A stretch of 44,522 nt of DNA from Patescibacteria group bacterium (GCA_038057515.1 JBBUDB010000017.1:1-44522), one strand, 5' to 3'. Positions 1,851-27,958 are shown, numbered from the stretch's first letter. The notes: a model not told the origin generated them from the sequence alone. Made by a program: numbers and translations.

Positions 1851-3275
1851 ATGCCATTCTCTAGTTCTCTAGCGCACCAATCTACTCGACCCATGTCCAT
1901 CACACTTTTCGGCATGGCCCGAACCGCCGTTTACGCGGCGCTCTTTTCGGTTCTTATCGTGATGTCGTCGACCTTCTTCCCGTTCATCGGGGGAAAATAT
2001 TATTTCTTCCGCGCGGCGGTGGAACTCGGCGTCATCTTCCTCCTGCTCTGGTGGGCCTTTGAGGCCCGGGCCGGCGTGCTGGAGGCGAAACTCCGGAAAA
2101 TCTTCCGCGAGCCGATCGTCGTCGCGGTATCGCTCTTCGCCTTCATGTTCCTCCTCGCGAGCTTGTTCGCTTACGACGCGCACGGAGCGTTCTGGTCCAA
2201 CTACGAGCGCGGCGAGGGCGGCTTCCAGATGCTCCACTACTATGCCTTTTTTCTTTTGCTTGTTCTGCTCTTCGACAAAGAAGACGAGTGGCGATACATC
2301 TTCAAGCTGTCGCTCGTGGCCGCCCTTGGCATGATCCTCTACGGCATCGCGGCGGCGTCGTTCCGCGATGGCTTCGTGGGGCCGTATGGTCAGACAGGCG
2401 GCTCGACGCTCCTCGCGCGGCTATTCCAGAAAGACGCTCGTTTTCAGGGTTCGCTTGGTAATCCGGCCTATGTCGCGCCGTACCTTCTTTTCTCGATGTT
2501 CTATGTCGGATATTTGTGGCTGTCGCGTAAGGCGAAAGCCGCACCGTGGCGGCGCATCGCCTGGTACAGCGGTCTTCTCGTTTTCTTTCTGGTCTTCTTC
2601 GTTCAGAGCCAGACCCGTGGCGCTTTTTTGGGACTTGCGGCGGGCGTGGGCGTGACGCTTCTCTACCTCGTCTTCCGCGACCGACGCTTGCGAAAACCGG
2701 CCATCGGTCTGGCTGTTACCATTCTCGCGCTCTGGGGCGGGTTCTACGCCAATCGGGAAAATCCGGCCATTCAAGCGATTCCTGGGAGTCGCTTCCTCAC
2801 CATTAATATTGCGGAGCGAACCGCCGAGACCAGGTTCTGGACCTGGGGTTCGGCGCGGGCCGGTTTTGCCGAGCGGCCGATATTCGGCTGGGGTCCGGAA
2901 AATTTTAGCACCGTCTTCGACAAGTATTTCGACCCCCGTCACTTCATCCCGGGCGCGAATACCGAGACGTGGTTCGATCGGGCCCACAGCGTTTTCTTCG
3001 ACTACCTCGCCGAAACCGGCCTCTTGGGATTCTTGAGTTATCTCGGCATGTTCGTGGTCTTCTTCTGGCAGTTCAAGAAGCGTCTCGTGGCCTCGGCTGG
3101 TCACGGTTCGCTCTTCGGCCATAGACCCGTTGTCGACGCGCTTGTTTTGGCCATGCCCGTCGCCTATCTCGTCCAAGGCCTCGTGCTCTTCGACGTTTTG
3201 CCCATCTACCTCAACCTCTTCTTCTTCCTCGCCTTTGCGAACTTCCTATTTACGCGCCATGAGCCAAAACCATGA
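1851..3275 (+). CDS. O-antigen ligase/polymerase-like (Wzy_C family) polytopic membrane protein
   Basis: Many hydrophobic segments. Wzy_C-like loop QSQTRGAFLGLAAG. The true start may be the ATG at 1893 (MSITLFG), which would place the CTCTAG tandem repeat in the leader. Confidence 0.6.
   Translation: MPFSSSLAHQSTRPMSITLFGMARTAVYAALFSVLIVMSSTFFPFIGGKYYFFRAAVELGVIFLLLWWAFEARAGVLEAKLRKIFREPIVVAVSLFAFMFLLASLFAYDAHGAFWSNYERGEGGFQMLHYYAFFLLLVLLFDKEDEWRYIFKLSLVAALGMILYGIAAASFRDGFVGPYGQTGGSTLLARLFQKDARFQGSLGNPAYVAPYLLFSMFYVGYLWLSRKAKAAPWRRIAWYSGLLVFFLVFFVQSQTRGAFLGLAAGVGVTLLYLVFRDRRLRKPAIGLAVTILALWGGFYANRENPAIQAIPGSRFLTINIAERTAETRFWTWGSARAGFAERPIFGWGPENFSTVFDKYFDPRHFIPGANTETWFDRAHSVFFDYLAETGLLGFLSYLGMFVVFFWQFKKRLVASAGHGSLFGHRPVVDALVLAMPVAYLVQGLVLFDVLPIYLNLFFFLAFANFLFTRHEPKP
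1857..1872 (+). repeat. perfect tandem 8-mer TTCTCTAG x2
   Basis: ttctctag ttctctag read directly. It ends 21 nt before the ATG at 1893. A related CTCTAG-T-CTCTAG lies 22 nt before the htpX ATG. Confidence 0.8.
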
Positions 3276-3931: not shown

Positions 3932-4933
3932 ATGAAAAAAGCCCTTATCTTCGGCATCACCGGCCAGGACGGGAGCTATTTGGCCGAACTCCTCTCCGGG
4001 AAAGAATACGAGGTGCATGGTGTCGTCCGTCGCGTCTCGACAATGAGCCGCCAGCGCCTCGACCGGCTTCATCCCGACCCGCACAGCCCGGCGCTCAAGG
4101 TTACGCTACACTACGGCGATGTGGGGGATGTATCAAGCATTCGGAGCATTATCCAGAAGTCGGCGCCGGACGAGGTGTACAACCTCGCCGCCCAGTCGCA
4201 CGTCCGCATTTCTTTCGACATCCCCGAGTATACGGCGGATGTCACCGGGCTCGGCACGTTGCGGATACTCGAAGCTTTGAAGGACTACGAAACCGCGACG
4301 GGCAAACGAGTTAAATTCTATCAGGCCTCGTCTTCGGAGATGTTCGGCTCGTCGCCGCCGCCCCAGAGCGAGACGACGCCCTTCCATCCCCGAAGCCCAT
4401 ACGCCATCGCTAAGGTGTTCGCCTATTGGACCACGGTGAACTATCGCGAGGCCTACGGCCTACACGCGGTGAACGGCATTCTTTTCAATCACGAATCACC
4501 CCGGCGCGGCGAGAACTTCGTGACCCGCAAGATCACCCGCGGCATCGCCGAGATCAAAACCGGTCTGGCGAAGAAAATATATCTTGGGAATCTCGAGGCG
4601 AAACGCGACTGGGGCTACGCCCCCGAATACGTGGAGGTTATGTGGCGGATGTTGCAAGAGGACGAGCCCGACGATTACGTCATCGGCACGGGCGAGAGCC
4701 ACTCGGTAGGGGATTTTTTGGAAACCGCCTTTCGCCACGCCGGACTGGGGGACTGGCAGTCGTACGTCGAGATCGATCCGCGTTACTATCGTCCGGCCGA
4801 GGTGGATAATCTAGTTGCCGATACCAGAAAGGCGAAAACAAAACTCGGCTGGGAGGCAAAGGTAAAGTTCGACGAGCTTGCGAAAATCATGGTCGAGGCC
4901 GATCTCGTAAGGTTCGGTATCGAGAAGAACTAA
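3932..4933 (+). CDS. gmd: GDP-mannose 4,6-dehydratase
   Basis: [21 protein letters not shown] Rossmann start, [17 protein letters not shown] (YxxxK), [17 protein letters not shown]. These are classic Gmd blocks. Confidence 0.9.
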
Positions 4934-4942: not shown

Positions 4943-5590
4943 GTGATCCTATTTATCATGCGCGCAATGAACACGAATATAGGTTCTTATCTGAATCGAC
5001 TTAAGCAAAAGCTGTACCTGCGTTTCAAGCGAGAGTACTTAGGGAATATGGCCCGGAAACAAAAGAAACTGGCTGGGAGGCCGCTTCGGATTTTAGAGAT
5101 CGGCGCTCTTATGGGAGAAAGCGCAGCCATTCTTTCTCGGCACGGGAAAGTTCTGACAGTTGATACTTGGGAAAATCCAGAAATGAAAAAGGAATTCTTG
5201 CGCCGGACTGCGAATAAGAATGTAGAGTACGTTCAGGGGAACAGCATGGATGTTCTGCCAAAACTGGAGAGTAGCTAAGATTTCATCTATGTTGATGGCT
5301 CCCATCACCATACCGAAACAATGTCGGATATTGAGAACTCCAAACGATTGGTAGACAATGGCGGTATCATCGTTGGTGACGACTTTGATTTGTCGATCAA
5401 CGAAGTTGATCGGCAGGCCCTGGGGAGGGTTCGAGAGACCGACGTTGCGAGAGATCCAAAAACGGGAAAGTTATGCCATCCCGGCGTGACCTTGGCCATC
5501 GCTGGGCAGTTCGGCGATTGGGTTAAAAAGGTGCCACATACATTTTGGGCGGTCCGAAAGATCGACGATAAGTTTGTGAACGCGTTATAA
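4943..5590 (+). pseudogene. class I SAM-dependent methyltransferase interrupted by an in-frame TAA
   Basis: ORFs 4943-5278 and 5321-5590 are in the same frame. TAA at 5276-5278 sits in ...LPKLESS*DFIYVDGSHHHTE...GGIIVGDDF, the usual xFDFIFIDGxH / GGxIvxDD methyltransferase blocks. Lower G+C than the flanks. Confidence 0.6.
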
Positions 5591-5733: not shown

Positions 5734-6282
5734 ATGAAGATCCCGGTGCCGATCGGTGGGCCGGAGGTCGTGTGGAAGAAGTACGGCAAGTCGGTCGTGC
5801 GACAGGACTTCCGCTACCCTGACGGTTCGACGAGAGACTTCTACTTCTGGGGCGGCGGCCGTCCGGCCATAGTGCTCGCGATCACGAAGGACGGCAACGT
5901 CGTTGCGGGTCGTCAGTTTCGCCACGGCGTGAACGCTGTGGTCGACGAGATCCCCGGCGGTCACCGCGACTCGGACGAGGAGACTCTCGTCGACGCCCTA
6001 CGCCGCGAACTTCGCGAGGAAGTCGGCGTCGAAGCCGGCCGTCTCATCGAGCTTCCGTGGTTCTACCTCGACCCGCCGTCGAACGGCGTCGTCGTGACCC
6101 CCTTCCTCGCTCTCGACTGCGAGCGGGTCGGCGGCCAGAACCTCGACTCAACCGAGGTCGTCGAAGTACTCGAGTTGCCGGTGCGCGAGTGGTACGCGCG
6201 GATGCGTCAGCCGGGCGGCGACGCGAAGACGCAGGTCGCGAGCTTCCTCGCGATGCCGTACCTCGAGCAGTACCTCGAGTAG
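5734..6282 (+). CDS. Nudix hydrolase, nucleoside-diphosphate-sugar pyrophosphatase type (NudF/NudK-like)
   Basis: Canonical Nudix box GGHRDSDEETLVDALRRELREEVGV. About 180 aa with an N-terminal beta domain, as in ADP-ribose / GDP-mannose pyrophosphatases. Confidence 0.7.
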   Translation: MKIPVPIGGPEVVWKKYGKSVVRQDFRYPDGSTRDFYFWGGGRPAIVLAITKDGNVVAGRQFRHGVNAVVDEIPGGHRDSDEETLVDALRRELREEVGVEAGRLIELPWFYLDPPSNGVVVTPFLALDCERVGGQNLDSTEVVEVLELPVREWYARMRQPGGDAKTQVASFLAMPYLEQYLE

Positions 6283-6359
6283 GTTCTCGAGGAGGCTCAT
6301 CATCACGGCGCGTTTCCCAGATACATCGGGGGACGCGCCGTTCGCATTTCAGGCCGACA

Positions 6360-6388
6360 TTGATTTCTTTATTTAGTTAATGCATAAT
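6360..6388 (+). promoter_or_regulatory. candidate promoter for the IMPase-family gene
   Basis: TTGATT (6360-6365), 17 nt, CATAAT (6383-6388) in an AT-rich spacer. SD GAGGAAGGG lies upstream of the ATG at 6459. Confidence 0.4.
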
Positions 6389-6458
6389 AGCGTCAGCTTT
6401 TGTAGCTCGGAACCAACCGAGCGTTTGATACGGTAAGCCAGAGAGGAAGGGCCGAACA

Positions 6459-7307
6459 ATGAGCAAAGAGACGACGATCGTGGGAGGTTCGTTCGAGGCC
6501 GTTTTCAATCCGGTGATCACCGACGCGCTCATCGCCGCCGGTCGGGAGGCCCTGCGGATCCGTATCTACGGGGCGCTCGGCGTGGAGGAGAAGACCTCCC
6601 CGCAGGACATCGTGACGGAAGCCGACAAGGCCGTCGAGCGTCTGCTCGTCGCGCGCATCGCCGAGCAGTTCCCCCAAGACGGCATCATGGGCGAGGAAGG
6701 CGCTACTCGGAACACCGAGAACGGCAGGGTGTGGTATCTCGATCCCATCGATGGCACTACGAACTTCGCTGCTGGGAGCGACTTCTTCGGCATCTCGGCG
6801 GGTCGGTTTGATGCCGACGGCCGTCCCGAGATAGGAGCCATTCACTTTCCGGCGCTCGCCAACAGGCCGACCGTTTACGCGGTTCGCGGGGGCGGCGCGC
6901 TCCATCGCTCTGATAGGGTGGAAAGAATCGTGACCCCGCTCTTTGACGGCGGTCTCTCGGAGGCCCTCGTCAGTGTTGGGCTCACGAAGGATAAGAGCCA
7001 CATTTTCGCGCCACTTCACTCCAGGGCGCGGAATGTCGTCGCCTTCGGCTCGTTCGTCTACGAGGCGATGCTTGTCGCCGAAGGCAAGCTCGCGGCCTAC
7101 GTCCACACCGGGGCGACCATCTTCGACGTGGCCGCCGCCGTCACCGTCTGTCGCGAGGCGGGGTGCCTCGTTTCGGGCATCCACACGGTCGAGGTGGATT
7201 TCGCCGCAAAGAGGATTCCCATCATGATCACGCGCGGCGAGCGTCTCACGAGCGAGCTCCGCGAGGTCTTCGTCGCAAACTGGATGTCGCCCGATTGGCA
7301 GCCGTAG
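6459..7307 (+). CDS. inositol monophosphatase family sugar-phosphate phosphatase
   Basis: IMPase motifs EEG...WYLDPIDGTTNF and a C-terminal FDVAAA-type block. Confidence 0.75.
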   Translation: MSKETTIVGGSFEAVFNPVITDALIAAGREALRIRIYGALGVEEKTSPQDIVTEADKAVERLLVARIAEQFPQDGIMGEEGATRNTENGRVWYLDPIDGTTNFAAGSDFFGISAGRFDADGRPEIGAIHFPALANRPTVYAVRGGGALHRSDRVERIVTPLFDGGLSEALVSVGLTKDKSHIFAPLHSRARNVVAFGSFVYEAMLVAEGKLAAYVHTGATIFDVAAAVTVCREAGCLVSGIHTVEVDFAAKRIPIMITRGERLTSELREVFVANWMSPDWQP

Positions 7308-7334
7308 CCACGAGGTGGCGTATCGTCAAAAAAA

Positions 7335-7370
7335 GCGCGCGTTTCTCATGTCGGGGAGCGCGCGTCTTTT
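7335..7370 (+). terminator. possible intrinsic terminator after the IMPase gene
   Basis: A-tract, self-complementary GCGCGCG at 7335-7341 and 7358-7364, then TCTTTTGCTCTT. Confidence 0.35.
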
Positions 7371-7383
7371 GCTCTTCGGCGTC

Positions 7384-7413
7384 TTTACGACGTTTTCTTG
7401 CTCGTGCTATGAT
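7384..7413 (+). promoter_or_regulatory. candidate extended -10 promoter, leaderless geometry
   Basis: TTTACG, 18 nt, TGcTATGAT (-10 at 7408-7413). Only 9 nt separate the -10 box from the ATG at 7423. Confidence 0.4.
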
Positions 7414-7422
7414 GGGTGGATT

Positions 7423-8436
7423 ATGAGTGGTTTCGAACCAGCCCGGGGGCAGAAAACAGCCCTCGTTTGCGGCGGCGGCGGGTTTATCGGCAGTCATCTC
7501 GCCCGGCGCCTGAAGGACGAGGGATTCTGGGTGCGCGTCGTGGATCTCAAGCGTCCCGAATTCAGCGAGACGGCCGCGGATGATTTTGTGGTCGGCGATC
7601 TGCGTCATGAGGTGACCTGGGAAAAAGTTCTCGACCGCCCGTTTGACGAGGTGTATCAACTCGCGGCCGATATGGGCGGCGCGGGCTATATATTCACTGG
7701 CGAGCACGACGCCGAGGTGATGCACAACTCGGGGAGCATTAATCTGCACATGGCCCATTACGGCGTCTCCCGTAGCGTCGGCAAGATATTCTATTCTTCA
7801 TCGGCTTGCATTTATCCGGCCTACAACCAGGAAGATCCGGATAATCCGAAGTGTCACGAGGACTCCGCCTATCCGGCCGCGCCCGACAGCGAGTATGGCT
7901 GGGAAAAGCTTTTTAGCGAGCGGATGTATCTCTCGTTCCACCGGAACAACAACCTCGATGTGCGCATTGCTCGTTTCCATAATATTTTCGGACCTGAAGG
8001 CGCCTGGCGCGGCGGACGCGATAAGGCGCCGGCGGCCGTCTGCCGTAAAGTGGCGGAGGCAAAAGATGGCGGCGAGATAGAAATATGGGGAGACGGCAAG
8101 CAGACCCGTTCGTTTCTTTACATTGACGAATGCCTGGAGGGGATACGACGACTGATGGATGCAAAGGACTTCCGCGGCCCGGTCAATATCGGTTCCGAGG
8201 AGATGGTGACCATCAACCAGCTCGCCGGGATGGCCATGGAGATCGCCGGCAAAAAACTCAACATTAACCATGTGCCGGGGCCCCTAGGAGTGCGCGGCCG
8301 GAACTCCGACAACCACCTTATTAAAAGGGAACTCGGCTGGGCGCCGAGCCGACCCCTCCGTGAGGGGCTTGCGAAGACCTACGCCTGGATTGAGGCTCAG
8401 GCTCAACGCCTCAAAGAAACGGAGGCAAAAAAATGA
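7423..8436 (+). CDS. GDP-mannose 3,5-epimerase-like SDR
   Basis: GGGGFIGSH Rossmann motif. The block RFHNIFGPEGAWRGGRDKAPAAVCRK closely matches my recollection of plant GME (RFHNIYGP.G.WKGGREKAPAAFCRK). YGWEK gives YxxxK. The listed ORF starts at 7315 but the N-terminal extension looks non-coding. Confidence 0.7.
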   Translation: MSGFEPARGQKTALVCGGGGFIGSHLARRLKDEGFWVRVVDLKRPEFSETAADDFVVGDLRHEVTWEKVLDRPFDEVYQLAADMGGAGYIFTGEHDAEVMHNSGSINLHMAHYGVSRSVGKIFYSSSACIYPAYNQEDPDNPKCHEDSAYPAAPDSEYGWEKLFSERMYLSFHRNNNLDVRIARFHNIFGPEGAWRGGRDKAPAAVCRKVAEAKDGGEIEIWGDGKQTRSFLYIDECLEGIRRLMDAKDFRGPVNIGSEEMVTINQLAGMAMEIAGKKLNINHVPGPLGVRGRNSDNHLIKRELGWAPSRPLREGLAKTYAWIEAQAQRLKETEAKK

Positions 8437-9578
8437 AGATCGTCTTCACTACGCCGGAGTACCACCAATACGATCCTCGGAAGGGGAAAACGAACGAGTA
8501 CAATAATTTTTATCTCGGGCTCAAGGCCGCCGGCCACGAAGTGATTTTCGCACCCTTCGACCGCATTCTTGAAGGGGCAAGCGAGGCGCGGCGGGGCTTT
8601 GCGGCTAAGATGTTCGATCGCAACATCACGCTCGGTCTGTTCGACCGAGGGGCAGCCGCCGGTCGGCGCCGGTTTAACGAGGAGCTTCTGGAAACCGTAC
8701 AGCGAGAAAAACCAGATCTCTTTTTCGCTTTTCTGTACACCGACGAGCTCGAACCCGCGACGCTCCGAGAGATCAAAAAGCTGACGACGAGCGTTGCCTG
8801 GTTCTCCGACGACTCGTGGCGTTTCTGGAATTACGCGGCCGAGTGGGCGCCGCGTTTCACGTGGGCGATCACAACGTACCCTTGGCGGGTAAAGGATTAC
8901 GCGCGTGTCGGTCAGCCGAACGTTGTCGTTTCTCAATGGGGCGTGAACGAGAACTTCTATCACCCTCTCCACGACCCCATTCCCGGAGGCGTGCCGGAGG
9001 TTTCGTTTGTCGGTTCGTGGAGCGCGCCGCGCGGCCGGATCGTGGCATCGTTGCTCCGCGCCGGCATTCCGGTTTCGGTCTACGGGGCCGGCTGGCAGTC
9101 GGCCGGCTGGGCAAGCCGGCGGGTGACCGACGAAGAGATGCTTTCGATCTTTACGCAAAGCAAGATCAATCTAGCGCTAAATCCGGCTCCGGGGCTTTGG
9201 AACATCACCTCTCTCGGTCAGCTGCTCGGCCGCCGGTCGGTGGATCGTTTCGTGCCGGACCTCCGACTGATCAGGAACTGGAGCGCCTTTCTCGACCATC
9301 GCATCCCGCAGATCAAAGCCCGTCACTTCGAGGTCGCGGCCTGCGGCGGTTTCACGATCGCCGGCTGGGCCGAAGGGATTGAGCAGTACTACGCGCCCGA
9401 CAAGGAAATGGTGTTTTACAAGAGTATGCCGGAGCTTATCGAAAAGGTGCGTTGGTATCTTGACCATCCCGCCGAACGCGAGGCAATCGCTCGAGCCGGC
9501 TACGAGCGGACGGTCCGAGATCACACCTACCGTCGGCGGTTCGAGGATATTTTCCGGGCGATTGGTTTTACCAAATAG
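8433..9578 (+). CDS. CgeB-like glycosyltransferase (DUF3880 / Glyco_trans_1_2 type)
   Basis: C-terminal KARHFEVAACGGF...YYAPDKEMVFY...HTYRRRFEDI is typical of the CgeB family. ATGA overlap with the upstream epimerase. Confidence 0.6.
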   Translation: MKIVFTTPEYHQYDPRKGKTNEYNNFYLGLKAAGHEVIFAPFDRILEGASEARRGFAAKMFDRNITLGLFDRGAAAGRRRFNEELLETVQREKPDLFFAFLYTDELEPATLREIKKLTTSVAWFSDDSWRFWNYAAEWAPRFTWAITTYPWRVKDYARVGQPNVVVSQWGVNENFYHPLHDPIPGGVPEVSFVGSWSAPRGRIVASLLRAGIPVSVYGAGWQSAGWASRRVTDEEMLSIFTQSKINLALNPAPGLWNITSLGQLLGRRSVDRFVPDLRLIRNWSAFLDHRIPQIKARHFEVAACGGFTIAGWAEGIEQYYAPDKEMVFYKSMPELIEKVRWYLDHPAEREAIARAGYERTVRDHTYRRRFEDIFRAIGFTK

Positions 9579-9608: not shown

Positions 9609-10073
9609 ATGTCGAAGGAACCCCGAAGATTAAGCGACGAAGAATACCGGTTCACGTACAGTCGGGCGCCCCGGATATGCGTCGACCTAATCGTTCACAA
9701 AGAAAACAGTTTTCTTTTAACGAAAAGAGCGATAGAACCGTTCAAGGGGCTTTGGCACTTTCCCGGCGGCCGGATCTTTTATAAAGAGTCCGTTGACGAG
9801 GCGATAGCGAGAATTTCGGAAGCGGAAGTCGGCCTGACGGTGAAGAATAAAGAGCTCCTAGGCTATCTTGAGGTTTTGGAGGACGGCAAATACGTCCACA
9901 GCGTGAGCATGGTCTTTCTCGTTCAGTTCGACTCCGGAGAGATACGCGGCAGTCTGCAGGCGCAGGAAGTAAAGATCTTTGAAGAAATTCCCGAAGACAC
10001 GCACCCCGTTCATGAAGAATTCTTGCGTACTCACTGGAGTTACATTTCGAGCAGGTTGAAGAATCCGGCCTAG
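9609..10073 (+). CDS. Nudix hydrolase, GDP-mannose mannosyl hydrolase-like (Gmm/NudD type)
   Basis: Degenerate Nudix box GGRIFYKESVDEAIARISEAEVGL resembles E. coli Gmm GGRVQKDETLEAAFERLTMAELGL (R-[LI]-[ST]-x-A-E-x-G-L). It sits directly before fcl. Confidence 0.55.
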   Translation: MSKEPRRLSDEEYRFTYSRAPRICVDLIVHKENSFLLTKRAIEPFKGLWHFPGGRIFYKESVDEAIARISEAEVGLTVKNKELLGYLEVLEDGKYVHSVSMVFLVQFDSGEIRGSLQAQEVKIFEEIPEDTHPVHEEFLRTHWSYISSRLKNPA

Positions 10074-10079: not shown

Positions 10080-11048
10080 ATGGCGATCAATCTTAAGGGG
10101 AAAAAAATCCTCGTCACCGGCGGCCACGGGTTTTTGGGCGGCCACGTGCTTCATCGTCTCCGGGCGATTGGCGTGCCAGGAGAAAATATTTTTACGCCCT
10201 CCGCGACGGAGCTTGATTTGCGGCGACTGGAACATTGTGAGCAAGCCGTTGTCGGGCAGCACATCGTGATTCATCTTGCCGCCAAGGTGGGCGGCATCGG
10301 GTTCAATCTGGAAAAGCCGGGTGAGATTTTCTACGACAATCTTTTGATGGGCGCCCAGTTGATGGAATCGGCTCGCCGCGCCGGCGTCGAAAAATTCGTG
10401 GCTATAGCCACCATCTGCGCGTACCCAAAACTTGCCCCGGTGCCGTTTCGCGAAGAATATCTCTGGGACGGCTACCCCGACGAAATAAACGCGCCTTACG
10501 GTCTCGCGAAGAAAATGCTTCTCGTCCAAGGACAGGCCTATCGCCGCCAGTACGGCATGAACGCCGTGACGCTTTTCCCGGTAAACCTCTATGGTCCGGG
10601 TGATAACTTCGACCCGGGCTCAAGCCATGTGATTCCGGCGCTCATTAAGAAGGTCGCCGACGCGAAGCGGGAGGGTAGTGATTTTATCGAGGTCTGGGGA
10701 ACCGGCAAGGCGACTCGTGAGTTCCTTTACGCCGCCGATGCGGCCGAGGGTATCGTCTTGGCGACCGAGCGTTATGATAAATCCGATCCCGTAAATCTCG
10801 GCTCCGGGAAGGAGGTTCCCATCAAGGAAGCCATCGAAACGGTTTGCCGCCTCATGGACTTTCGCGGCGAGATTCGTTGGGACCAGACGAAACCCGACGG
10901 CCAGCCCCGTCGAATGCTTGACGTCTCGCGCGCCGAGCGCGAGTTTGGTTTCCGGGCGAAGACCGATTTCGAGACGGGCCTTAAGGAAACGACCGTCTGG
11001 TATCTTGGGACGTACCCACAAGGATACGAAGGAGGCAAGAGGGCATGA
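10080..11048 (+). CDS. fcl: GDP-L-fucose synthase (GDP-4-keto-6-deoxymannose 3,5-epimerase/4-reductase)
   Basis: [15 protein letters not shown] (YxxxK), [37 protein letters not shown]. These are canonical Fcl blocks. Confidence 0.85.
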
Positions 11049-12130
11049 TACTGAAAGATACAAAGATCATTATCGTCGGGGCGAGCTGGTACGGCCACTG
11101 GGCGAAGGACTTCTGGGAAGGCCTTACAGAGATCGGTGCCGATGCCGAGATCATCTACACAAATCTCGTCGGCGGTGCCCAGCCGACGGGCGGGACGCCA
11201 TCGCTACGAACGCAAATATTCGCTCTCGCGAAGCGGTTCCTGCGGCGCTTCGCGCCGACCGTTGTGGATTTCGTGAAACGGCGAAGCCAGAGCGGCGCCG
11301 AGAGAACGCTCCTGGAACGTGCTGATAACGTTATTGCTTCGGGGAAAAAGGTGCTTGTGATTTTTGTCTGGACGCCGCCCTCGGAAACAGCTCTTCGGGA
11401 ACTCAAAAAGCGCCCAGTGGCGCTTGCCTTGTGGCAGGGCGAACCGACGGCTCGCGATTTGGGCTGGGAGCCGCTCTTCGATTATTTTGATCATCTTTTC
11501 TGCGTGGATGACGATTGGATGGCGCGGTTTGCCGAAGAACGGAACCGCCGGCGAGCCATCCTCCTGCCGCTCGCGACCAATCCCCGCATTCATCGTCCCG
11601 TGCCGCCGAGTAATGATCCGAAATACCAGGCGGATGTCGCTTTCGTGGGTTTCTACCGGCCGCAGAGAGCCGACATGCTTTCGGCCATCAAACACTTAGA
11701 CCTCAAGATTTATGGCTATGATTGGGAAGAAGGATTTCACGACTTTCCGTGGATGAGGGAAAAATATTTCGGCACGCTTGCCGATGAAGAAGTGAATCTT
11801 ATTTTCAACACGGCCAAGATCTCGATTGGCACACTTGGTATTACCCAGAATCCCGGGCCGACCACCACCCAGCGCACTTTTGATATTGCTCTTGCCGGTG
11901 GTTTCCAGATTTCCGGCTGGGCCGCCCTTACCCCGAAGCTCTTTGGCGATGCCGTCGTGCTTTTTCGGACGAAAGAAGAACTTGCCAATCTCGTGAAGCA
12001 TTACCTCGCGCGTCCGGACGAGCGCCGGGATATGGCGGAGCGAGCTCGCCTTATCGCGACGGAGGGCCATACCTACGCTCACCGCGCCCGCGTTATACTC
12101 AAAGCGTGCGGGATCTCTGTTAATGATTGA
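11045..12130 (+). CDS. CgeB-like glycosyltransferase, paralogue of 8433-9578
   Basis: Same C-terminal architecture ([12 protein letters not shown]...[10 protein letters not shown]). ATGA overlap with fcl. Confidence 0.55.
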
Positions 12131-12171
12131 AAAGCAAATCGAGAATTATATCGCCCGCGCCACTAAGTTTC

Positions 12172-12750
12172 ATGATCAATCGGATTAATCGACAAATCGA
12201 GGATTACATCGCCTTGGCCGGCGTATTTCGGGATCCGGCGTTTGCCGAGCGGATGATCGCCGCCATCCGCCTCATCGAGGCGGCGTTTCGGCAGAAAGGC
12301 AAGGTGCTCGTTGCCGGCAATGGCGGCTCGGCCGCTGATGCCCAGCACTTCGCGGCCGAGTTCGTGTGCAAGTTTAAGCGTGAGCGGCCGGGATACGCGG
12401 CCATCGCGCTCACGACCAACACCTCCGTTTTGACCGCCTGGAGCAATGATTACGATTTCAAAGATGTTTTTGCTCGCGAGGTCGAGGCGCTCGGCCGTGC
12501 CGGTGACGTATTTGTCGGTATTTCTACTTCCGGGAACTCGGAGAATGTAATCCGAGCCATCACGAAGGCGAAAGGGATTGGCCTCACGACCGTCGCCATC
12601 CTCGGCCATGATGGCGGACGCACGAAAGGCGTGGCCGATATCGAGATCGTCGTGCCGTCGAATAATACACCGCGTATTCAAGAGGCGCAGATGTTCATCT
12701 TGCACGCAATCGCCGAGGAGGTTGAGGCCCTGCTCGCGGGACAAAATTAG
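12172..12750 (+). CDS. gmhA: sedoheptulose-7-phosphate isomerase (SIS domain)
   Basis: VAGNGGSAADAQHFAAEF, ISTSGNSENV, QEAQMFILH. The listed ORF begins at a TTG (12127) overlapping the upstream stop, so the ATG at 12172 is preferred. Confidence 0.8.
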   Translation: MINRINRQIEDYIALAGVFRDPAFAERMIAAIRLIEAAFRQKGKVLVAGNGGSAADAQHFAAEFVCKFKRERPGYAAIALTTNTSVLTAWSNDYDFKDVFAREVEALGRAGDVFVGISTSGNSENVIRAITKAKGIGLTTVAILGHDGGRTKGVADIEIVVPSNNTPRIQEAQMFILHAIAEEVEALLAGQN

Positions 12751-12799
12751 CCCCACCGGCAGTTTTCTGATATATAAACTAAGTACTTATTCTCCAAGC

Positions 12800-13765
12800 A
12801 TGGCCCAGACCATCGTCCCGGAACCGAAGAATACCGAGATAAAAAGTATCACCGCTGGGGACTTTGCCGCCTGTTTCGGCGAAGAGCTTTCGCCGCGGAC
12901 GCGCGCTGTCGCCGAGGCAGGGGATTTTCGTTTCTTCGAGCTTACGCCCGACGAGCGCGACGTTTGCATTCGGACGATCGTCGAGAAGTTTGTTGACCCG
13001 GCCTTCGATCGTTCTGGCGCGCACCGGATCGATAAGTGGGAAAGGGGCTGGGGCGAGAACCTCGCCGAACTTCAGGCCGCGAGCGGAACCGACTTTGCCG
13101 CCACGATCCGGCCGAAGTATTTCGATAAATACGACATTGTTCGTTTTCGCGGTCGGTTCATCAAGGCGCTCGCTTCCGATTTCGAATACCAGATGTTGCG
13201 CGTGATTCTAGCGTGGCTCTTTGAAAAATATCTCGCCACGGCGCCGACGGTCTATGAGTTCGGCTGCGGCACGGGTCACAATCTGCTCTGGCTTCGCGAG
13301 TTCAACCCCGGAGCGAAGCTCGTCGGCCTTGATTGGGCCGTTTCGTCGCAAGAAATCATCGCCGAAATGGTGCGTCGGGGGATACTCGCGGATGCCGAGG
13401 GACGACGCTTCGATTTTTTTAATCCCGATAAAACTCTGGCTCTCGAACCCGACTCGGCTGTTTACACCGTTGCCGCGCTTGAGCAGGTGGGAGAGGAAAG
13501 CGGCAAGTTTCTGGACTATCTTCTCGGGCAGAAACCGTCGGTTGTGGTACACGTCGAGCCGATGGCCGAGTTCTTCGATCCGCAAAACCCCTTGGACGCG
13601 CTTGCCATCACCTACTACAAGAAACGCAATTGGCTTTGGGGGTTGCTCACGAATCTGCGAAAACTTGAAAGCGAGGAAAAGATAGAGATTCTCGAGGCCC
13701 GTCGCACGCATTTGGGACACCTTCTGACGGATGGTTATTCCGTGGTCGTGTGGCGGCCAAAGTGA
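12800..13765 (+). CDS. class I SAM-dependent methyltransferase
   Basis: VYEFGCGTGHNL motif I, LVGLDW motif II. The ORF listed from 12578 overlaps gmhA, so the ATG at 12800 (MAQTIVPEP) is preferred. Confidence 0.65.
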   Translation: MAQTIVPEPKNTEIKSITAGDFAACFGEELSPRTRAVAEAGDFRFFELTPDERDVCIRTIVEKFVDPAFDRSGAHRIDKWERGWGENLAELQAASGTDFAATIRPKYFDKYDIVRFRGRFIKALASDFEYQMLRVILAWLFEKYLATAPTVYEFGCGTGHNLLWLREFNPGAKLVGLDWAVSSQEIIAEMVRRGILADAEGRRFDFFNPDKTLALEPDSAVYTVAALEQVGEESGKFLDYLLGQKPSVVVHVEPMAEFFDPQNPLDALAITYYKKRNWLWGLLTNLRKLESEEKIEILEARRTHLGHLLTDGYSVVVWRPK

Positions 13766-13784
13766 CCTTCTGCGCTGGCTTTTC

Positions 13785-13813
13785 TTGCATCACCACCGGA
13801 CCGGGGATATACT
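13785..13813 (+). promoter_or_regulatory. candidate promoter, leaderless geometry
   Basis: TTGCAT (13785-13790), 17 nt, TATACT (13808-13813), then 9 nt to the ATG at 13823. Confidence 0.45.
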
Positions 13814-13822
13814 GGGAAAATA

Positions 13823-14338
13823 ATGGAATTCGTCAAAACTAAGCTTTCAGGCGTTGTTCTTGTAAAACCGGACGTTCAGGAGGATTTTCGAGGCGGCTAC
13901 GTCGAGACGTACAACAAGAAGGCCTATCAGGGGAATGGCATCGCGCCGGAATTCGTCCAGGACGACATGTCGTTCTCGACGAAGCACGTTTTGCGCGGGA
14001 TTCATGCCGATCAAGAGATCGCGAAACTTGTGTCCTGTGCCTACGGCCGATTTTACTGCGTCATCGTGAACTGCGATGAATCTTCGCCGGACTTCGGCAA
14101 ATGGGAATCGTTCAATTTGTCAGATCGCAATCGTTGGCAGGTCTATGCGCCGCCGAAGCACGGCGTGGCCCACCTTGTCATGAGCGACTACACGATCTTC
14201 CACTACAAACAATCGGGATATTACAATCCGTCGAATCAGAAGAGCTATCGCTTCGACGACCCGCGCTTCAAAATCTGGTGGCCGGTTAAGGCCCCGATCC
14301 TTTCCCGTCGCGACGAAGAGGGAAAATATGTCGACTAG
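13823..14338 (+). CDS. RmlC-like cupin sugar-nucleotide 3,5-epimerase
   Basis: FRGGYVETY, VLRGIHAD, KLVSCAYGRFYCVIV, GVAHLVMSD, FHYKQSGYY. This is the dTDP-4-dehydrorhamnose 3,5-epimerase fold signature. Confidence 0.8.
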   Translation: MEFVKTKLSGVVLVKPDVQEDFRGGYVETYNKKAYQGNGIAPEFVQDDMSFSTKHVLRGIHADQEIAKLVSCAYGRFYCVIVNCDESSPDFGKWESFNLSDRNRWQVYAPPKHGVAHLVMSDYTIFHYKQSGYYNPSNQKSYRFDDPRFKIWWPVKAPILSRRDEEGKYVD

Positions 14339-15281
14339 TCCCAAAAAAATCCTCGTGACCGGCGGTGCCGGCTACATCGGCTCGGTTCTCGTGCCGGAGC
14401 TTTTGCGTCTCGGCCACGAAGTGACGGTTATCGACAGCTTTCTCTACGGCCAGACGCCGCTTCTCGATGTCGTTCACTATCCAACACTCACCGTTGTTCG
14501 GGGCGATGCCCGAAACGAAGAATTGATTAAAAAACATCTCGAGGGCAAAGATGTCGTCATCCCGCTGGCGTGTCTTGTGGGCGCGCCGCTCTGCGACAAG
14601 GACCCGATCGCGGCCGAGACCACGAATCTTGAGGCGATCAAAATGATCGTGCGGTTGCGCAACAAGGCGACCCAGCAGATTATCTTTCCGAACACGAATA
14701 GCGGCTACGGCCGGATGGCTGAAGGCGTGGCCTATTGCGATGAAAATAGCCCGCTTGAACCCGTGTCGCTCTACGGCAAGCTAAAAGTAGAAGCGGAAAA
14801 ACTATTGCTTGCCGACGGCAATGCCATCACCTTTCGGCTCGCCACGGTTTTTGGGGCGAGCCCTCGGATGCGTCTCGATCTTCTCGTGAACGACTTCGTG
14901 TACCGGGCCGTGAACGACCGCGTGGCGGTGCTTTTCGAAGCGCACTTCAAGCGGAACTACATTCACATTCGCGACGTGGCGGCCGCGTTTATCCACGCGA
15001 TGGACAACTTCGAAACGATGAAGAACCAGCCCTACAACGTCGGTCTTTCGGAGGCGAATCTCTCGAAACTCGAGCTTTGCGAGGAGATCAAGCGCGTTTT
15101 GCCCAAATTCGTTTTTATTGAATCGAAGATCGGTGAGGATCCGGATAAGCGTAATTACATTATCTCTAATGCAAAGATCGAAGCGACGGGGTATAAGCCA
15201 AAGGTATCGCTCCCGGTGGGCATTCGCGAGCTCGTGAAGACATACGAGATCGTGAAACGGAACCACTTCGCGAATATCTAA
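14328..15281 (+). CDS. extended SDR, NAD-dependent sugar-nucleotide dehydrogenase/epimerase
   Basis: ILVTGGAGYIGS, YGKLK (YxxxK). Overlaps the RmlC-like gene by 11 nt. Confidence 0.7.
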   Translation: MSTSPKKILVTGGAGYIGSVLVPELLRLGHEVTVIDSFLYGQTPLLDVVHYPTLTVVRGDARNEELIKKHLEGKDVVIPLACLVGAPLCDKDPIAAETTNLEAIKMIVRLRNKATQQIIFPNTNSGYGRMAEGVAYCDENSPLEPVSLYGKLKVEAEKLLLADGNAITFRLATVFGASPRMRLDLLVNDFVYRAVNDRVAVLFEAHFKRNYIHIRDVAAAFIHAMDNFETMKNQPYNVGLSEANLSKLELCEEIKRVLPKFVFIESKIGEDPDKRNYIISNAKIEATGYKPKVSLPVGIRELVKTYEIVKRNHFANI

Positions 15282-15303
15282 GGGCTTACATCTTGGGCTC
15301 TCT

Positions 15304-15330
15304 GGACGGCCAAAAGAGGCCGTTTTATTT
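15304..15330 (+). terminator. rho-independent terminator
   Basis: ACGGCC-AAAAGA-GGCCGT followed by TTTATTTG. Confidence 0.6.
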
Positions 15331-15340
15331 GCCCTAAATT

Positions 15341-15364
15341 CCTTTCCGGCGTACCATGGAAAGG
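15341..15364 (+). promoter_or_regulatory. hairpin sequestering the purine tract before the ATG at 15367
   Basis: CCTTTCC (15341-15347) pairs with GGAAAGG (15358-15364). The latter is the only SD-like sequence, 2 nt before the start codon. Confidence 0.3.
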
Positions 15365-15366
15365 TT

Positions 15367-16329
15367 ATGGCGGAGATAAAACGCAAGAGGATCCTCGTGA
15401 CTGGCGGTAATGCCGTTGCGGGTGATGGCCTGAAGAGCGTCGTTGCGGCGGGCGAATTTTCTGGCCGCGAGTTCGTCTTTCCGGGCTCAAAGGAGTTGAA
15501 TCTTTTGGACGCCGCGGCGACGAGAAAATACGTTGCCGACTGGAAGCCCGATGCTATCGTGCATTTTGCAGCGATCTCTGGCGGCATTCAGCTTACCCTC
15601 GATCATCCGGCGAGTGTGATGCGCGATAATATTCTCATGAACCTCAACGTCGTCGAAGCGGCGCGTCTTTCGGGTGTGACGAAAATAATCATGACGCTTT
15701 CCGCGGCGATCTATCCCATGAATGCCCCGGTGCCGATGAAAGAAGAATCTCTCCACGAGGGCTATCCGCACGAGACGAACTACAGTTATGCGTTCGCAAA
15801 GCGGCTCATTGACCCAATGGCGAAGGCCTATCACAAAGAATATGGTATGGATATCGTTGGTATCATCCCGGGGGCGATCATCGGCCCGAAGAGCAGTTTC
15901 GATCCAAAAAGCTCCACGGCCATCCCGGCGATAATTCGCCGCTTTTACGAGAACCGAGAGGGGGATGGTCCGCTTGTTGTGTGGGGTGATGGATCACCCT
16001 TGCGTCAATTCACTTCCGGTGATGATATTGGTCGGGTGGCCATGTGGTGCGTCGACAATTATAACGAGCCGCAGATGCTGAATGTAAGCACGATGGAAGA
16101 AACCTCCATTAAGGATGCGGCATATATGATCGCCGAGTTTCTGGGAATCGACGCAAAACGCCTAACATTCGACACTTCAAAACCCGCCGGAACGCCTCGT
16201 CAGGCGATCGATAACACGAAGTTCATGAGCTTATCGCATTTCACATATATGCCAGCGCGAGAAACGATAAAAAGAACCGTTGAATATTTTGCGGCGAACT
16301 ATCCCGATCCGAAAAAACTCCGACTCTAA
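15367..16329 (+). CDS. Fcl-like SDR (second GDP-fucose-synthase paralogue), probable NDP-4-keto-sugar reductase
   Basis: LSAAIYP, YSYAFAKR (YxxxK), SSTAIPAIIRRF, VVWGDGSPLRQF. These blocks are collinear with Fcl. Confidence 0.65.
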   Translation: MAEIKRKRILVTGGNAVAGDGLKSVVAAGEFSGREFVFPGSKELNLLDAAATRKYVADWKPDAIVHFAAISGGIQLTLDHPASVMRDNILMNLNVVEAARLSGVTKIIMTLSAAIYPMNAPVPMKEESLHEGYPHETNYSYAFAKRLIDPMAKAYHKEYGMDIVGIIPGAIIGPKSSFDPKSSTAIPAIIRRFYENREGDGPLVVWGDGSPLRQFTSGDDIGRVAMWCVDNYNEPQMLNVSTMEETSIKDAAYMIAEFLGIDAKRLTFDTSKPAGTPRQAIDNTKFMSLSHFTYMPARETIKRTVEYFAANYPDPKKLRL

Positions 16330-16331
16330 AG

Positions 16332-17303
16332 ATGAACTATCGACCACTCGGCAGAACGGGTATCACTGTTTCGGAAGTTGGTTTTGGCACGTGGGGCATC
16401 GGCGGAGAAACGCCCGGCGCCACGTCCTATGGGCCGACCGACGATACCGAATCAAAACGCGCCCTCGAAACCGCTTTTGAGAACGGCATTACGTTCTACG
16501 ACACATCGGATCTTTACGGTGCTGGCCACGCCGAGGAACTCTTGGGAGAGGTCTTCTCGAATCGCCGCGAGAAGATCGTCATCGCGAGCAAGGTTGGCTA
16601 CGTCCAGCATGGGGGACCGCACGATTTTCGACCGATGTGGATCCGCGCGCGGGTCGAGGCAAGTTTGCGCCGCCTCAAGACCGACTACCTCGACGTTTAC
16701 CAACTCCATAGTCCGCCGATGGATCAGCTTCGCGCGACACCTGGCGCGATTGAAGAGATGCACGCATTAAAGAGAGAAGGTAAGATTCGTGCCATCGGTA
16801 TCTCCGTAAAGAGTCCGAAAGATATTCAGGCGGCAATCGAAGAGTTTGGCGCCGAGACCATTCAGGTTAATTTCAATCTCATTGATCAGCGGGCGCTTGA
16901 TGACGGTTGGTTCGCGTTCGCCGGTAACCGGGGCGTTGGCATCATCGCGCGCACACCACTCGGCTTCGGATTCTTGAGCGGCGCCATCACCGATCTTCAT
17001 TTTCCGCCAAGCGATCATCGTTCGAACTGGCCCGAGGGCCAGCTTCGTCGCTGGGCCGAAGCACCGAAGCTTTTCGCGTTTTTAGGCGAGGGGCGCGAGG
17101 CATCGCCCACCCAGATCGCTTTGAAATTCTGCACGAGCTTTTCCGAGGTCGGCGTCGTGATCCCCGGCATCCTGCACCCGTCGGAGGCGGTAGAAAATGC
17201 CGCCGCGAGCGAAATCCAGAGCTTCACGGCCGAAGAGATTGCCCGAGCCCGCGAGGTCTACAAGGACAACGAATTTTTCGACAAATCGCTGAAATCGAAG
17301 TAA
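16332..17303 (+). CDS. aldo/keto reductase
   Basis: LGRTGITVSEVGFGTWGIGG, FYDTSDLYGAGHAEELLG, IASKVG, YQLHSP. These are AKR signatures. Confidence 0.8.
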   Translation: MNYRPLGRTGITVSEVGFGTWGIGGETPGATSYGPTDDTESKRALETAFENGITFYDTSDLYGAGHAEELLGEVFSNRREKIVIASKVGYVQHGGPHDFRPMWIRARVEASLRRLKTDYLDVYQLHSPPMDQLRATPGAIEEMHALKREGKIRAIGISVKSPKDIQAAIEEFGAETIQVNFNLIDQRALDDGWFAFAGNRGVGIIARTPLGFGFLSGAITDLHFPPSDHRSNWPEGQLRRWAEAPKLFAFLGEGREASPTQIALKFCTSFSEVGVVIPGILHPSEAVENAAASEIQSFTAEEIARAREVYKDNEFFDKSLKSK

Positions 17304-17316
17304 ACTGGGCTCCACG

Positions 17317-18141
17317 ATGATAGAAGCTGCTCTTGGGGAGGATTTATTTGGCCGGGCGAAGCACATCCGCCGGGACATCGTCGAGATGATCTACCGGGCG
17401 AAAAGCTCTCATATCGGTTGCGCGCTTTCTGCGGCCGATATTCTTACCGCGCTCTACTTCGGCGGGGTTTTGCGCATTGATCCGAAAAGCCCAAAAGCGC
17501 CGGGGCGGGACCGGCTCATCTTAAGCAAGGGCCATGCGGTGACGGCTGTGTACGCCGCTCTCGCCGAGCGCGGTTTTTTCCCAAAAGAAAAACTTCTTGA
17601 ATATGGGACCGATGGCACGACGCTCGCGAGCCATATCGTCCTTGATGTTCTACCGGGAACGGAAACCTCAAGCGGTTCCGGGGGTCACGGCCTACCGATG
17701 GGTGTCGGCATGGCGCTTGCCGCTCGGGCGGATAAGAACGGCGCCCGGATATTCGTGCTTTCGGGTGACGGCGAGCTCGAAGAAGGATCGGCGTGGGAGG
17801 CGATGCTTTTTGCCGGACATCATAAGCTTTCGAATTTGAAACTTATCGTTGATCGTAACGATCTTCAAGACGGCGTGGATGGTCTTCGGGTGAGCGATGT
17901 TCTTGATCTGAATCCTTTAGACGAAAAGTTCCGAGCCTTCGGCTGGGAAGTTGATATCGTTGACGGCCATGATCCGGCCGCCCTCATCCCAGCGCTCAAA
18001 AAGGAGACGGCTCGACCACACGCCATAATCGCGAAGACAGTAAAGGGAAAGGGGGTATCTTTCATGGAAAATCGGGGCGAGTGGCATGGGAAGTGCCCGA
18101 ATGCCGATGAGTACGCAATCGCGATAAAAGAACTATCTTAA
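17317..18141 (+). CDS. transketolase, N-terminal (ThDP pyrophosphate-binding) subunit
   Basis: GHIGCALSAADIL, LSKGHAVTAVYA, GSGGHGLPMGVGMA, LSGDGELEEGSAWEA. Confidence 0.85.
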   Translation: MIEAALGEDLFGRAKHIRRDIVEMIYRAKSSHIGCALSAADILTALYFGGVLRIDPKSPKAPGRDRLILSKGHAVTAVYAALAERGFFPKEKLLEYGTDGTTLASHIVLDVLPGTETSSGSGGHGLPMGVGMALAARADKNGARIFVLSGDGELEEGSAWEAMLFAGHHKLSNLKLIVDRNDLQDGVDGLRVSDVLDLNPLDEKFRAFGWEVDIVDGHDPAALIPALKKETARPHAIIAKTVKGKGVSFMENRGEWHGKCPNADEYAIAIKELS

Positions 18142-18149
18142 TTATCATC

Positions 18150-19064: not shown

Positions 19065-19068
19065 CCAG

Positions 19069-20070: not shown

Positions 20071-20076
20071 CCGCCG

Positions 20077-24237: not shown

Positions 24238-24814
24238 GTTAAAAAAGCGCGCTGTTTTTCTCGATCGTGACGGTACCCTGGTGCATCTGAAGCTTGGGGA
24301 GTACACAACCAGTCCTAAGCAATTACGTCTTTTGCCCGGCGCCGCCACGGCAGTCCGGGCCTTAAATCGGATAGGATATTCGGTGGTTATCATTACAAAT
24401 CAGGGCGTTATTGCGAAGGGAAAAACGACGCACAAGGAAGTTGACTATTTGCACGCAATACTTATCGATCGATTAGGAAAGAAAGGAGCGCGCGTGGACG
24501 CCGTTTATTACTGCCCGCACCACCCCGAGGGGAAGATCCCGAAATATGCCATTCGTTGCCGCTGTCGGAAGCCGGAGATCGGCATGATCACCAAGGCCAT
24601 GAAAGATATGAGTATTGATATGAAAAAAAGTTTCTTGATCGGCGACACAACGGGCGATATTCTGACCGGCCATCGCGCGGGCCTTACTACCATCTTGGTC
24701 AAAACCGGCTATGGCGGACGGGATAAGAAGCACGACGTGAAACCGGATTTCGTTGTTCGCAATCTCACCGCCGCCGTGCGCTATATCAAGAAACATGCCC
24801 AACCCCAAGGTTAG
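24221..24814 (+). CDS. gmhB: D-glycero-D-manno-heptose 1,7-bisphosphate phosphatase (HAD, GmhB type)
   Basis: FLDRDGTL, TNQGVIAKG, zinc motif CPHHP...CRCRKP, GDTTGDI. Confidence 0.8.
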   Translation: MAMNRKLKKRAVFLDRDGTLVHLKLGEYTTSPKQLRLLPGAATAVRALNRIGYSVVIITNQGVIAKGKTTHKEVDYLHAILIDRLGKKGARVDAVYYCPHHPEGKIPKYAIRCRCRKPEIGMITKAMKDMSIDMKKSFLIGDTTGDILTGHRAGLTTILVKTGYGGRDKKHDVKPDFVVRNLTAAVRYIKKHAQPQG

Positions 24815-27118: not shown

Positions 27119-27188
27119 GTTCAACTAGCCTTTGTTAAATAGTTCTTGATTAAAACTCCGGTTTTTCAGCACGTAATGATCTACGGGG

Positions 27189-27216: not shown

Positions 27217-27226
27217 CTCAAGCATT

Positions 27227-27928: not shown

Positions 27929-27958
27929 AAAATGACCATTTAGTTTTTAAAAACACCA

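Follow-up and report, generated by a model that had tools for sequence, protein, structure and literature searches.

A conserved Nudix–IMPase gene pair beside a GDP-mannose 3,5-epimerase gene in a Patescibacteria-type surface-glycan cluster

A Nudix hydrolase gene and an inositol-monophosphatase (IMPase)-family gene, lying side by side in a groundwater bacterial contig, form a conserved module that is separate from the GDP-mannose 3,5-epimerase (GME) gene following them and that is found in relatives without a nearby GME. The contig, 44,522 nucleotides in length and analysed whole, is referred to here as the window; it is an entire 44.5-kb contig of a groundwater-well metagenome-assembled genome (MAG) from the 0.1-µm size fraction. 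The three genes, Nudix1, IMPase1, and GME, occupy positions 5734-8436. A previous reading made from the sequence alone (the sequence-only reading) had proposed that they might represent a bacterial counterpart of the L-galactose (Smirnoff-Wheeler) route of plants. Three consecutive open reading frames (ORFs) on the plus strand were indeed found where that reading had placed them, together with the peptide strings it quoted, and its family calls for Nudix1 (NDP-sugar type), IMPase1, and GME were supported by matches to PF00293, PF00459, and the Arabidopsis GME structure 2c59, respectively. The Nudix1-IMPase1-GME junction is covered by contigs of independent sequencing runs and assemblies, which rules out an assembly chimera. 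The NCBI MAG GCA_964360165.1 (L001) holds a near-identical copy of the window with no differences across 5734-9578, so selection on the three genes is not gauged by that comparison.

To place the pair in context, we examined nine independent neighbourhoods of IMPase1 relatives, usually ±10 kb and less where contigs were short (11 kb for L005). The IMPase1 clade comprises about 30 relatives with 34-54% identity, mainly on small-genome Patescibacteria-type contigs; a profile search of genome contigs with an 11-sequence IMPase alignment returned mostly generic IMPases of at most 39% identity and added two useful loci, L010 and L009, the latter being the L007 locus. In five of the loci (L005, L089, L090, L091, and L172) the IMPase orthologue is immediately preceded by a Nudix1 orthologue, with a 4-bp stop/start overlap in L090 and L091. 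Three of these loci (L005, L090, and L172) share the order Gmd, (cupin), Nudix, IMPase, Fcl, the Fcl orthologue (351-538 bits) standing directly 3' of the IMPase gene. The other two carry a short-chain dehydrogenase/reductase (SDR) gene, Nudix, IMPase, the two halves of a split transketolase (TK-N and TK-C), and a GHMP kinase gene, with an SDR gene and an aldo-keto reductase (AKR) gene between IMPase and TK-N in L091. The Nudix gene is not directly upstream in L007, where the IMPase gene lies in an SDR/AKR/transketolase/GHMP kinase block and 5 kb upstream there is a weak Nudix-like gene; in L010, where the IMPase gene has GHMP kinase and SIS genes as neighbours and both Fcl and Gmd are 3 kb distant; in L173, where it is next to thiamine diphosphate (ThDP) enzymes and a split transketolase; and in L174, a distant relative in a housekeeping context among tRNA synthetase genes. 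None of the nine neighbourhoods, these four included, contains GME: the GME query scored at most 82 bits, the level of Fcl-like SDRs, against a self-score of 789 bits. Since the IMPase gene is directly followed by Fcl in relatives, the three genes between IMPase1 and Fcl in the window, namely GME, the glycosyltransferase-like gene GT-like1, and the small Nudix gene Nudix2, look like a lineage-specific insertion. No Nudix2 orthologue adjoins the pair in the relatives' neighbourhoods examined.

Two of these loci show a further adjacency. At 19300-20795 of L090, E1_dh and Transket_pyr genes adjoin another Nudix1-like gene on its 3' side, and at 10001-16559 of L173 the IMPase1-like gene lies directly by E1_dh, a TPP enzyme, and the split transketolase. 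This proximity to two-subunit ThDP enzymes repeats the pattern of L089 and L091, and no explanation so far accounts for its recurrence.

GME homologues are abundant. At least 8000 proteins match at 1e-30, a number that may include other SDR families, and a metagenome scan gave at least 600 matches, at variance with the statement in the sequence-only reading that bacterial GMEs are uncommon. The top 120 homologues are 74-81% identical and belong to Patescibacteria, Planctomycetia, and other groups. We surveyed the loci of the best 80 of the at least 600 metagenome matches, 46 of which were at least 8 kb long; the positive controls were all recovered. A Nudix1-like gene was present at none of the 80 loci and an IMPase gene at one. 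At 33 GME loci, Pfam families were assigned to the two ORFs closest to GME on either side (131 neighbours), and the most frequent were GT4 (18), methyltransferases (10), and Gmd (7), followed by GT2 (6), Bac_transf (5), PF13524 (5), and Wzy_C (4), with NUDIX and Inositol_P outside the top 25 neighbour families. The context of GME elsewhere is glycan synthesis. Given this abundance in environmental bacteria, the presence of GME by itself is no sign of an ascorbate-type pathway. Co-occurrence of the triad across relatives, on which the sequence-only reading had staked its proposal, was therefore seen neither around the IMPase gene (0/9 neighbourhoods with GME) nor, apart from the single IMPase gene, around GME.

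The boundary between IMPase1 and GME is marked by breaks in both transcription signals and base composition. An intrinsic-terminator-like hairpin, consisting of an A-tract, a 13-bp GC-rich stem, and a U-tract, sits between the IMPase1 stop (7307) and the GME start (7423); it is present in both the minimum-free-energy and the centroid folds, and the region has a z-score of -2.3. A sigma-70-like promoter match (TTTACG, 18 nt, TG-TATGAT) lies just 5' of the GME start, and promoter-like sites precede each of the three genes, in line with the caveat of the sequence-only reading that each gene seemed to have its own promoter. The GC content at third codon positions (GC3) is 0.86 for Nudix1 and 0.81 for IMPase1 versus 0.68 for GME and 0.62-0.74 for the other neighbours, and the overall GC content of the two genes (0.66 and 0.64) compares with 0.57 for the contig. 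The raised GC and GC3 values shared by Nudix1 and IMPase1 suggest a shared history, such as joint acquisition, apart from GME and the neighbours. On its other side, GME is joined to GT-like1 by a stop/start overlap (ATGA, 8433-8436), and the stop of Fcl overlaps the start of GT-like2 in the same way. GT-like1 likely uses the GME product. Its orthologue comes after Fcl in L090 and L172, a position that would fit transferases for L-fucose and for its 6-hydroxy analogue L-galactose.

Nudix1 belongs to the dimeric NDP-sugar/ADP-ribose pyrophosphatase subfamily. Its best solved relatives are the NDP-X hydrolases Ndx2 of T. thermophilus (2e-22) and Bd3179 of Bdellovibrio (1e-13), with E. coli NudK at 9e-5. 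The Nudix box RRELREEVGV spans residues 90-99 and keeps the catalytic glutamates (REx2EE), with a one-residue loop insertion relative to Ndx2. It has been proposed that an Asp-X-Lys motif at about G22N+65, in helix alpha3, sets GDP-hexose-preferring NDP-sugar hydrolases apart from ADP-ribose pyrophosphatases (PMC4629899). In Nudix1, a DAK motif stands exactly at G22N +65 to +67 and aligns with the DVK of Bd3179, in an alignment that spans residues 21-175 and includes the N-terminal region. DAK or DSK is kept in 7 of 10 members of the Nudix1 clade. Distant relatives (P0254, 37% identity) occur in unrelated contexts with no paired IMPase gene, indicating that the Nudix-IMPase pairing is confined to the glycan-cluster clade. 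Nudix1 is predicted to catalyse the first step of the pair, the cleavage of an NDP-sugar to NMP and sugar-1-phosphate.

IMPase1 retains the metal- and phosphate-binding motifs GEEG (78), DPIDGT (95), and FDVAAA (222). It falls below every NCBIfam equivalog cutoff, the best scores being 125 versus 275 bits for HisN and 71 versus 264 bits (1e-19) for bifunctional FBPase/IMPase. The best PDB match is the IMPase/FBPase of T. maritima (2p3n), with bacterial IMPase/FBPase at 1e-27 and HisN also matched; mammalian IMPases match at only about 1e-17 to 1e-18, and there is no specific kinship to VTC4 or other eukaryotic IMPases. Assignments as a histidinol-phosphatase or CysQ were rejected on the basis of scores far under the cutoffs and the glycan-cluster context. 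We predict that IMPase1 performs the second step of the pair, dephosphorylation of a sugar-1-phosphate.

GME is an orthologue of the plant enzyme. It matches the Arabidopsis GME (AtGME; 2c59) with an E-value of 5.6e-94 (318 bits) and 49% identity over 311 residues, whereas UDP-glucuronate decarboxylase, the next family, reaches only 93 bits (1.6e-25) and GDP-fucose synthase 68 bits. The grouping with GMEs rather than with UDP-sugar families is as the sequence-only reading had expected. The protein carries the NAD-binding motif GGGGFIGSH at residue 17, SSSAC with C129, YGWEK with Y158 and K162, GGRDKAP with K201, and GVRGRNSDN with R293. C129, K201, and R293 correspond to C145, K217, and R306 of AtGME. 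Neither the NAD motif nor any of the five residues varies when the protein is aligned with 14 homologues. Their roles (NAD motif, Ser/Tyr/Lys triad, acid/base Cys and Lys, and Arg) are taken from PMC6678494, which also describes an active bacterial enzyme, MfGM35E of Methylacidiphilum fumariolicum, that is likewise about 50% identical to plant GMEs. The similarity to AtGME together with the conserved catalytic residues identifies the SDR as a GME orthologue, predicted to convert GDP-mannose to GDP-L-galactose as well as GDP-L-gulose. The database copy has 337 residues and homologues align from about residue 10, placing the start at the ATG at 7423. A longer GTG start at 7315 was rejected, as it crosses the terminator-like hairpin and is not covered by homologues.

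From the observed gene identities, synteny, missing GME linkage, and transcription and composition breaks, we favour, with moderate confidence, a reading in which GME supplies its coupled transferase while Nudix1 and IMPase1 act as a separate two-step drain or proofreader of GDP-sugars. The conserved order Gmd, Nudix, IMPase, Fcl would have been extended in this lineage by a module in which GME is joined by a PF13524 glycosyltransferase-like gene and a Gmm-like Nudix. GME would convert GDP-mannose to GDP-L-galactose or GDP-L-gulose, and the translationally coupled GT-like1 would add the resulting L-sugar to the glycan. The Nudix-IMPase pair would be an independent, older module: Nudix1 may split a GDP-sugar into GMP and sugar-1-phosphate, and IMPase1 may then strip the phosphate to leave the free sugar, with both the substrates and the order of steps being presumptive. 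Such a pair could serve to drain, or to proofread, a pool of GDP-sugar that yields a non-recyclable sugar-1-phosphate, comparable to Gmm or NudK, and GDP-fucose, GDP-mannose, and GDP-heptose are candidate substrates. The conversion of a GDP-sugar to a free sugar by Nudix and then phosphatase is the most likely activity of the pair and is not tied to GDP-L-galactose. This largely coincides with the fallback offered by the sequence-only reading, namely that GME feeds a glycosyltransferase and the Nudix and IMPase serve pool control, which holds up as a reading.

Several points weigh against this reading. The survey covered about 20 kb around each relative, and a GME gene elsewhere in those genomes is possible. 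The promoter and terminator calls follow E. coli-type consensus sequences, which may not be the signals of the host, and a search for RNA-seq runs bearing on the transcription units gave none. In L089 and L091 the pair has a split transketolase next to it, an arrangement not accounted for by a simple drain role. In addition, a DSK motif is also present in the ADP-ribose pyrophosphatase-like PDB entry 8wv3, and DxK is lost in the L005 orthologue; DxK is therefore an imperfect marker, and the base and sugar specificity of Nudix1 is not settled by it.

The transketolase adjacency is the starting point of another explanation, which we regard as quite unlikely. Here the pair would release a free, modified sugar from a GDP-sugar on a biosynthetic path; a split transketolase/E1-like ThDP enzyme would add or branch a two-carbon unit, the AKR and SIS proteins would reduce or isomerise the product, and the GHMP kinase and a nucleotidyltransferase would re-activate it to give a higher-carbon or branched sugar. 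GDP-L-galactose could be one input in this strain. In its favour, the pair lies directly 5' of TK-N, TK-C, and GHMP kinase genes in L089 and of SDR, AKR, TK-N, TK-C, and GHMP kinase genes in L091, the ThDP-enzyme genes of L090 and L173 described above follow a Nudix1-like or IMPase gene, and the window has the same genes within 12 kb. However, GmhA, HddA, GmhB, and HddC, the best NCBIfam matches, fully account for the SIS, GHMP kinase, HAD, and nucleotidyltransferase genes, respectively, and the transketolase is explained by a supply of sedoheptulose-7-phosphate. The pair also stands between Gmd and Fcl, away from transketolase, in four lineages, including those of L005, L090, and L172, and a biochemical precedent was not found in the literature search. 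A role in precursor supply or housekeeping is unlikely too, though it draws on the nearest solved structures. IMPase1 would then be a fructose or sedoheptulose bisphosphatase (FBPase/SBPase) feeding fructose-6-phosphate or sedoheptulose-7-phosphate into GDP-mannose or GDP-heptose synthesis, Nudix1 a general ADP-ribose/NDP-X pyrophosphatase, and the adjacency of GME incidental. The nearest structure to IMPase1 is a dual IMPase/FBPase, with the NCBIfam bifunctional family at 1e-19; Nudix1 is nearest to Ndx2, which hydrolyses ADP-ribose/FAD broadly; and the IMPase relative of L174 lies among tRNA synthetase genes. What speaks against this role is the tight pairing of Nudix and IMPase, with stop/start overlaps, inside glycan clusters of five lineages, which argues for consecutive steps on one substrate. 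Moreover, all family scores are far under the equivalog cutoffs, and DxK favours NDP-hexoses over ADP-ribose.

The plant route itself appears highly improbable. In that scheme GME would produce GDP-L-galactose, Nudix1 would stand in for VTC2 and IMPase1 for VTC4, and the AKR would oxidise L-galactose. The three genes are adjacent on the same strand, Nudix1 is of the NDP-sugar type with DxK, the IMPase family includes VTC4, and the AKR has family-level similarity to L-galactose dehydrogenase (L-GalDH; 1e-22). These points are outweighed by the nine relatives with the IMPase orthologue, five of them with an adjacent Nudix, that have no GME in the stretch examined, by the GME loci that lack the pair, and by the hairpin and GC3 break between IMPase1 and GME. 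The gene that the sequence-only reading had singled out as the AKR is a real AKR, but not one with a specific resemblance to L-GalDH: its closest solved relatives are of the IolS/YhdN type (2.7e-34, versus 1.1e-22 or weaker for L-GalDH). It lies 8 kb downstream of GME in a block that is kept in L007 and L091, both without GME in the stretch fetched. Pfam scans found no HIT-family (VTC2-like) gene in the window and no FAD-linked lactone dehydrogenase/oxidase domain in its large ORFs. Finally, free L-galactose would be of no evident use to so small a genome.

The favoured reading, a GDP-sugar drain beside a GME that feeds a transferase, has parallels in known systems. The E. coli colanic-acid operon gmd-fcl-gmm (wcaH/nudD) places a Nudix gene together with gmd and fcl, and the hydrolase presumably trims the pool of GDP-sugars. 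The window likewise joins Nudix genes with Gmd and Fcl, and the best family of Nudix2 is Gmm. In contrast, Nudix1 belongs to the dimeric NudK/ADPRase-like subfamily, with NMP and sugar-1-phosphate as predicted products where Gmm gives GDP and sugar, and its partner is a phosphatase, of which the E. coli operon has none. The pair resembles VTC2/VTC4 in that a GDP-sugar is predicted to lose first its nucleotide and then its 1-phosphate in two steps, the second enzyme being of the IMPase family. It differs in that a Nudix hydrolase would replace the HIT phosphorylase, in that the pair is unlinked to GME in relatives, and in the absence of the downstream dehydrogenases from the window; nor is IMPase1 closer to eukaryotic than to bacterial IMPases. 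Within the Nudix subfamily, Nudix1 groups with NudK (YffH, 3o6z), Bd3179 (5c7q), and AtNUDX9, its DxK aligning with that of Bd3179, whereas its similarity to NudK itself is low and its nearest solved relative is Ndx2. Enzymes of this group convert GDP-mannose into GMP plus mannose-1-phosphate (PMC4629899). The window GME shares with plant GME and MfGM35E (PMC6678494) the extended-SDR signature and the same catalytic Cys/Tyr/Lys/Lys/Arg; unlike them, it lies in a Patescibacteria-type glycan cluster, is coupled to a PF13524 gene, and is known from sequence alone.

Since homologues are common and one bacterial GME is already characterised (PMC6678494), the window GME is nothing new in kind. The literature search returned no precedent for a Nudix and IMPase with transketolase or a heptose module, nor for Patescibacteria GDP-sugar clusters. 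As far as those searches went, the conserved Nudix-IMPase pair of Patescibacteria-type glycan clusters is undescribed, and it is the mildly new element here. If the favoured reading is correct, the surface glycan of an ultra-small groundwater bacterium would carry L-galactose or L-gulose besides L-fucose and heptoses, a further case of surface-glycan diversification by modular gene insertion with no new pathway, and the pair would be a simple candidate two-enzyme GDP-sugar hydrolysis system in organisms with much-reduced metabolism. Were the pair instead to release a sugar on-pathway, it would belong to a route, not described before, that leads to unusual sugars of higher carbon number or with branches. 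The features of the window are collected in Table 1.

Table 1. Coordinates of genes and sequence signals in the window
Feature	Position	Strand	Match or description
Wzy-like	1851-3275		
Gmd, GDP-mannose 4,6-dehydratase	3932-4933	+	TIGR01472, 499 bits (cutoff 415)
Methyltransferase-like	4943-5590	+	class I SAM; one in-frame TAA at 5276-5278
Nudix1	5734-6282	+	PF00293, 1e-11
IMPase1	6459-7307	+	PF00459, 3e-44, 152 bits; inositol-monophosphatase-family sugar-phosphate phosphatase
Terminator-like hairpin	7331-7370	+	consensus scan
Sigma-70-like promoter match	7384-7413	+	consensus match
GME, GDP-mannose 3,5-epimerase orthologue	7423-8436	+	extended SDR; Pfam NAD-dependent epimerase/dehydratase, 3e-39
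GT-like1, glycosyltransferase-like	8433-9578	+	PF13524, 3e-29; paralogue of GT-like2 (22% identity, 5e-13)
Nudix2, small Nudix	9609-10073	+	best family Gmm/WcaH-like, NF011963, 1.3e-12, 48 bits (below the cutoff of 146)
Fcl, GDP-L-fucose synthase-like SDR	10080-11048	+	NF047922, 272 bits
GT-like2	11045-12130	+	PF13524
AKR	16332-17303	+	PF00248; in block SDR15367, AKR, TK-N, TK-C, GHMP kinase
Split transketolase (TK-N, TK-C)	17317-19064		
Sugar-1-phosphate nucleotidyltransferase	27146-27928	+	
Second IMPase	28023-28940	-	PF00459, 2e-17
Sugar-1-phosphate nucleotidyltransferase	28967-29707	+	

Judged by its gene content, the window is an O-antigen-like cluster for a cell-surface glycan; it includes Wzy, Wzx, and an initiating sugar transferase and is centred on GDP-sugars, and its groundwater host is probably a member of the Patescibacteria/Candidate Phyla Radiation (CPR). 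The gene order begins with RNase Y, a Wzy-like gene, a hypothetical gene, Gmd, and the broken methyltransferase gene, and continues with Nudix1, IMPase1, GME, GT-like1, Nudix2, Fcl, and GT-like2. Then follow a GmhA-like SIS gene, a hypothetical gene, an RmlC-like gene, two SDR genes, the AKR gene, and the split transketolase; an HddA-like GHMP kinase, GT2, GT4, Wzy-like, GmhB-like HAD, GT2, and Wzx; and a nucleotidyltransferase, the second IMPase, another nucleotidyltransferase, an SDR, the initiating sugar transferase, and a GT2 gene, after which housekeeping genes begin. Gmd and Fcl are predicted to yield GDP-L-fucose, and the GmhA, HddA-like, GmhB, and nucleotidyltransferase proteins GDP-heptose. 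The region 12127-29707 holds a full candidate set for GDP-D-glycero-alpha-D-manno-heptose, composed of GmhA (204 bits versus a cutoff of 209), the HddA-like GHMP kinase, the GmhB-like HAD, and HddC/ManC-like nucleotidyltransferases; the RmlC-like epimerase, the two SDRs, the AKR, and the split transketolase lie beside it. The divergent second IMPase gene, flanked by the two sugar-1-phosphate nucleotidyltransferase genes, has only a 64-residue local match to IMPase1, and the cluster thus contains two IMPase paralogues.

The methyltransferase-like gene upstream of Nudix1 is probably a pseudogene. Its halves (4943-5278 and 5321-5590) are in the same frame, with DFIYVDGSH right after the stop. The stretch has zero nucleotide differences from L001, and in relatives its place is taken by a cupin gene (L005) or left empty. 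Within Fcl, 340 bp (10355-10694) are missing from the L001 version of the contig, where Fcl would thus be disrupted. Logan contigs from several runs show the Fcl region fragmented; a variant differs by 37 mismatches, and there are loose ends at positions 10366, 10464, and 10695. Rather than a clean deletion, this suggests strain heterogeneity or assembly breaks driven by paralogues. Elsewhere, the differences between the window and L001 are clustered: all 26 in the Wzy-like gene (14 synonymous and 12 non-synonymous) fall inside a 110-bp patch at 2702-2810, and 8 further differences in RNase Y lie inside a 117-bp patch at 542-658. Both patches look like short recombination or strain-variant tracts.

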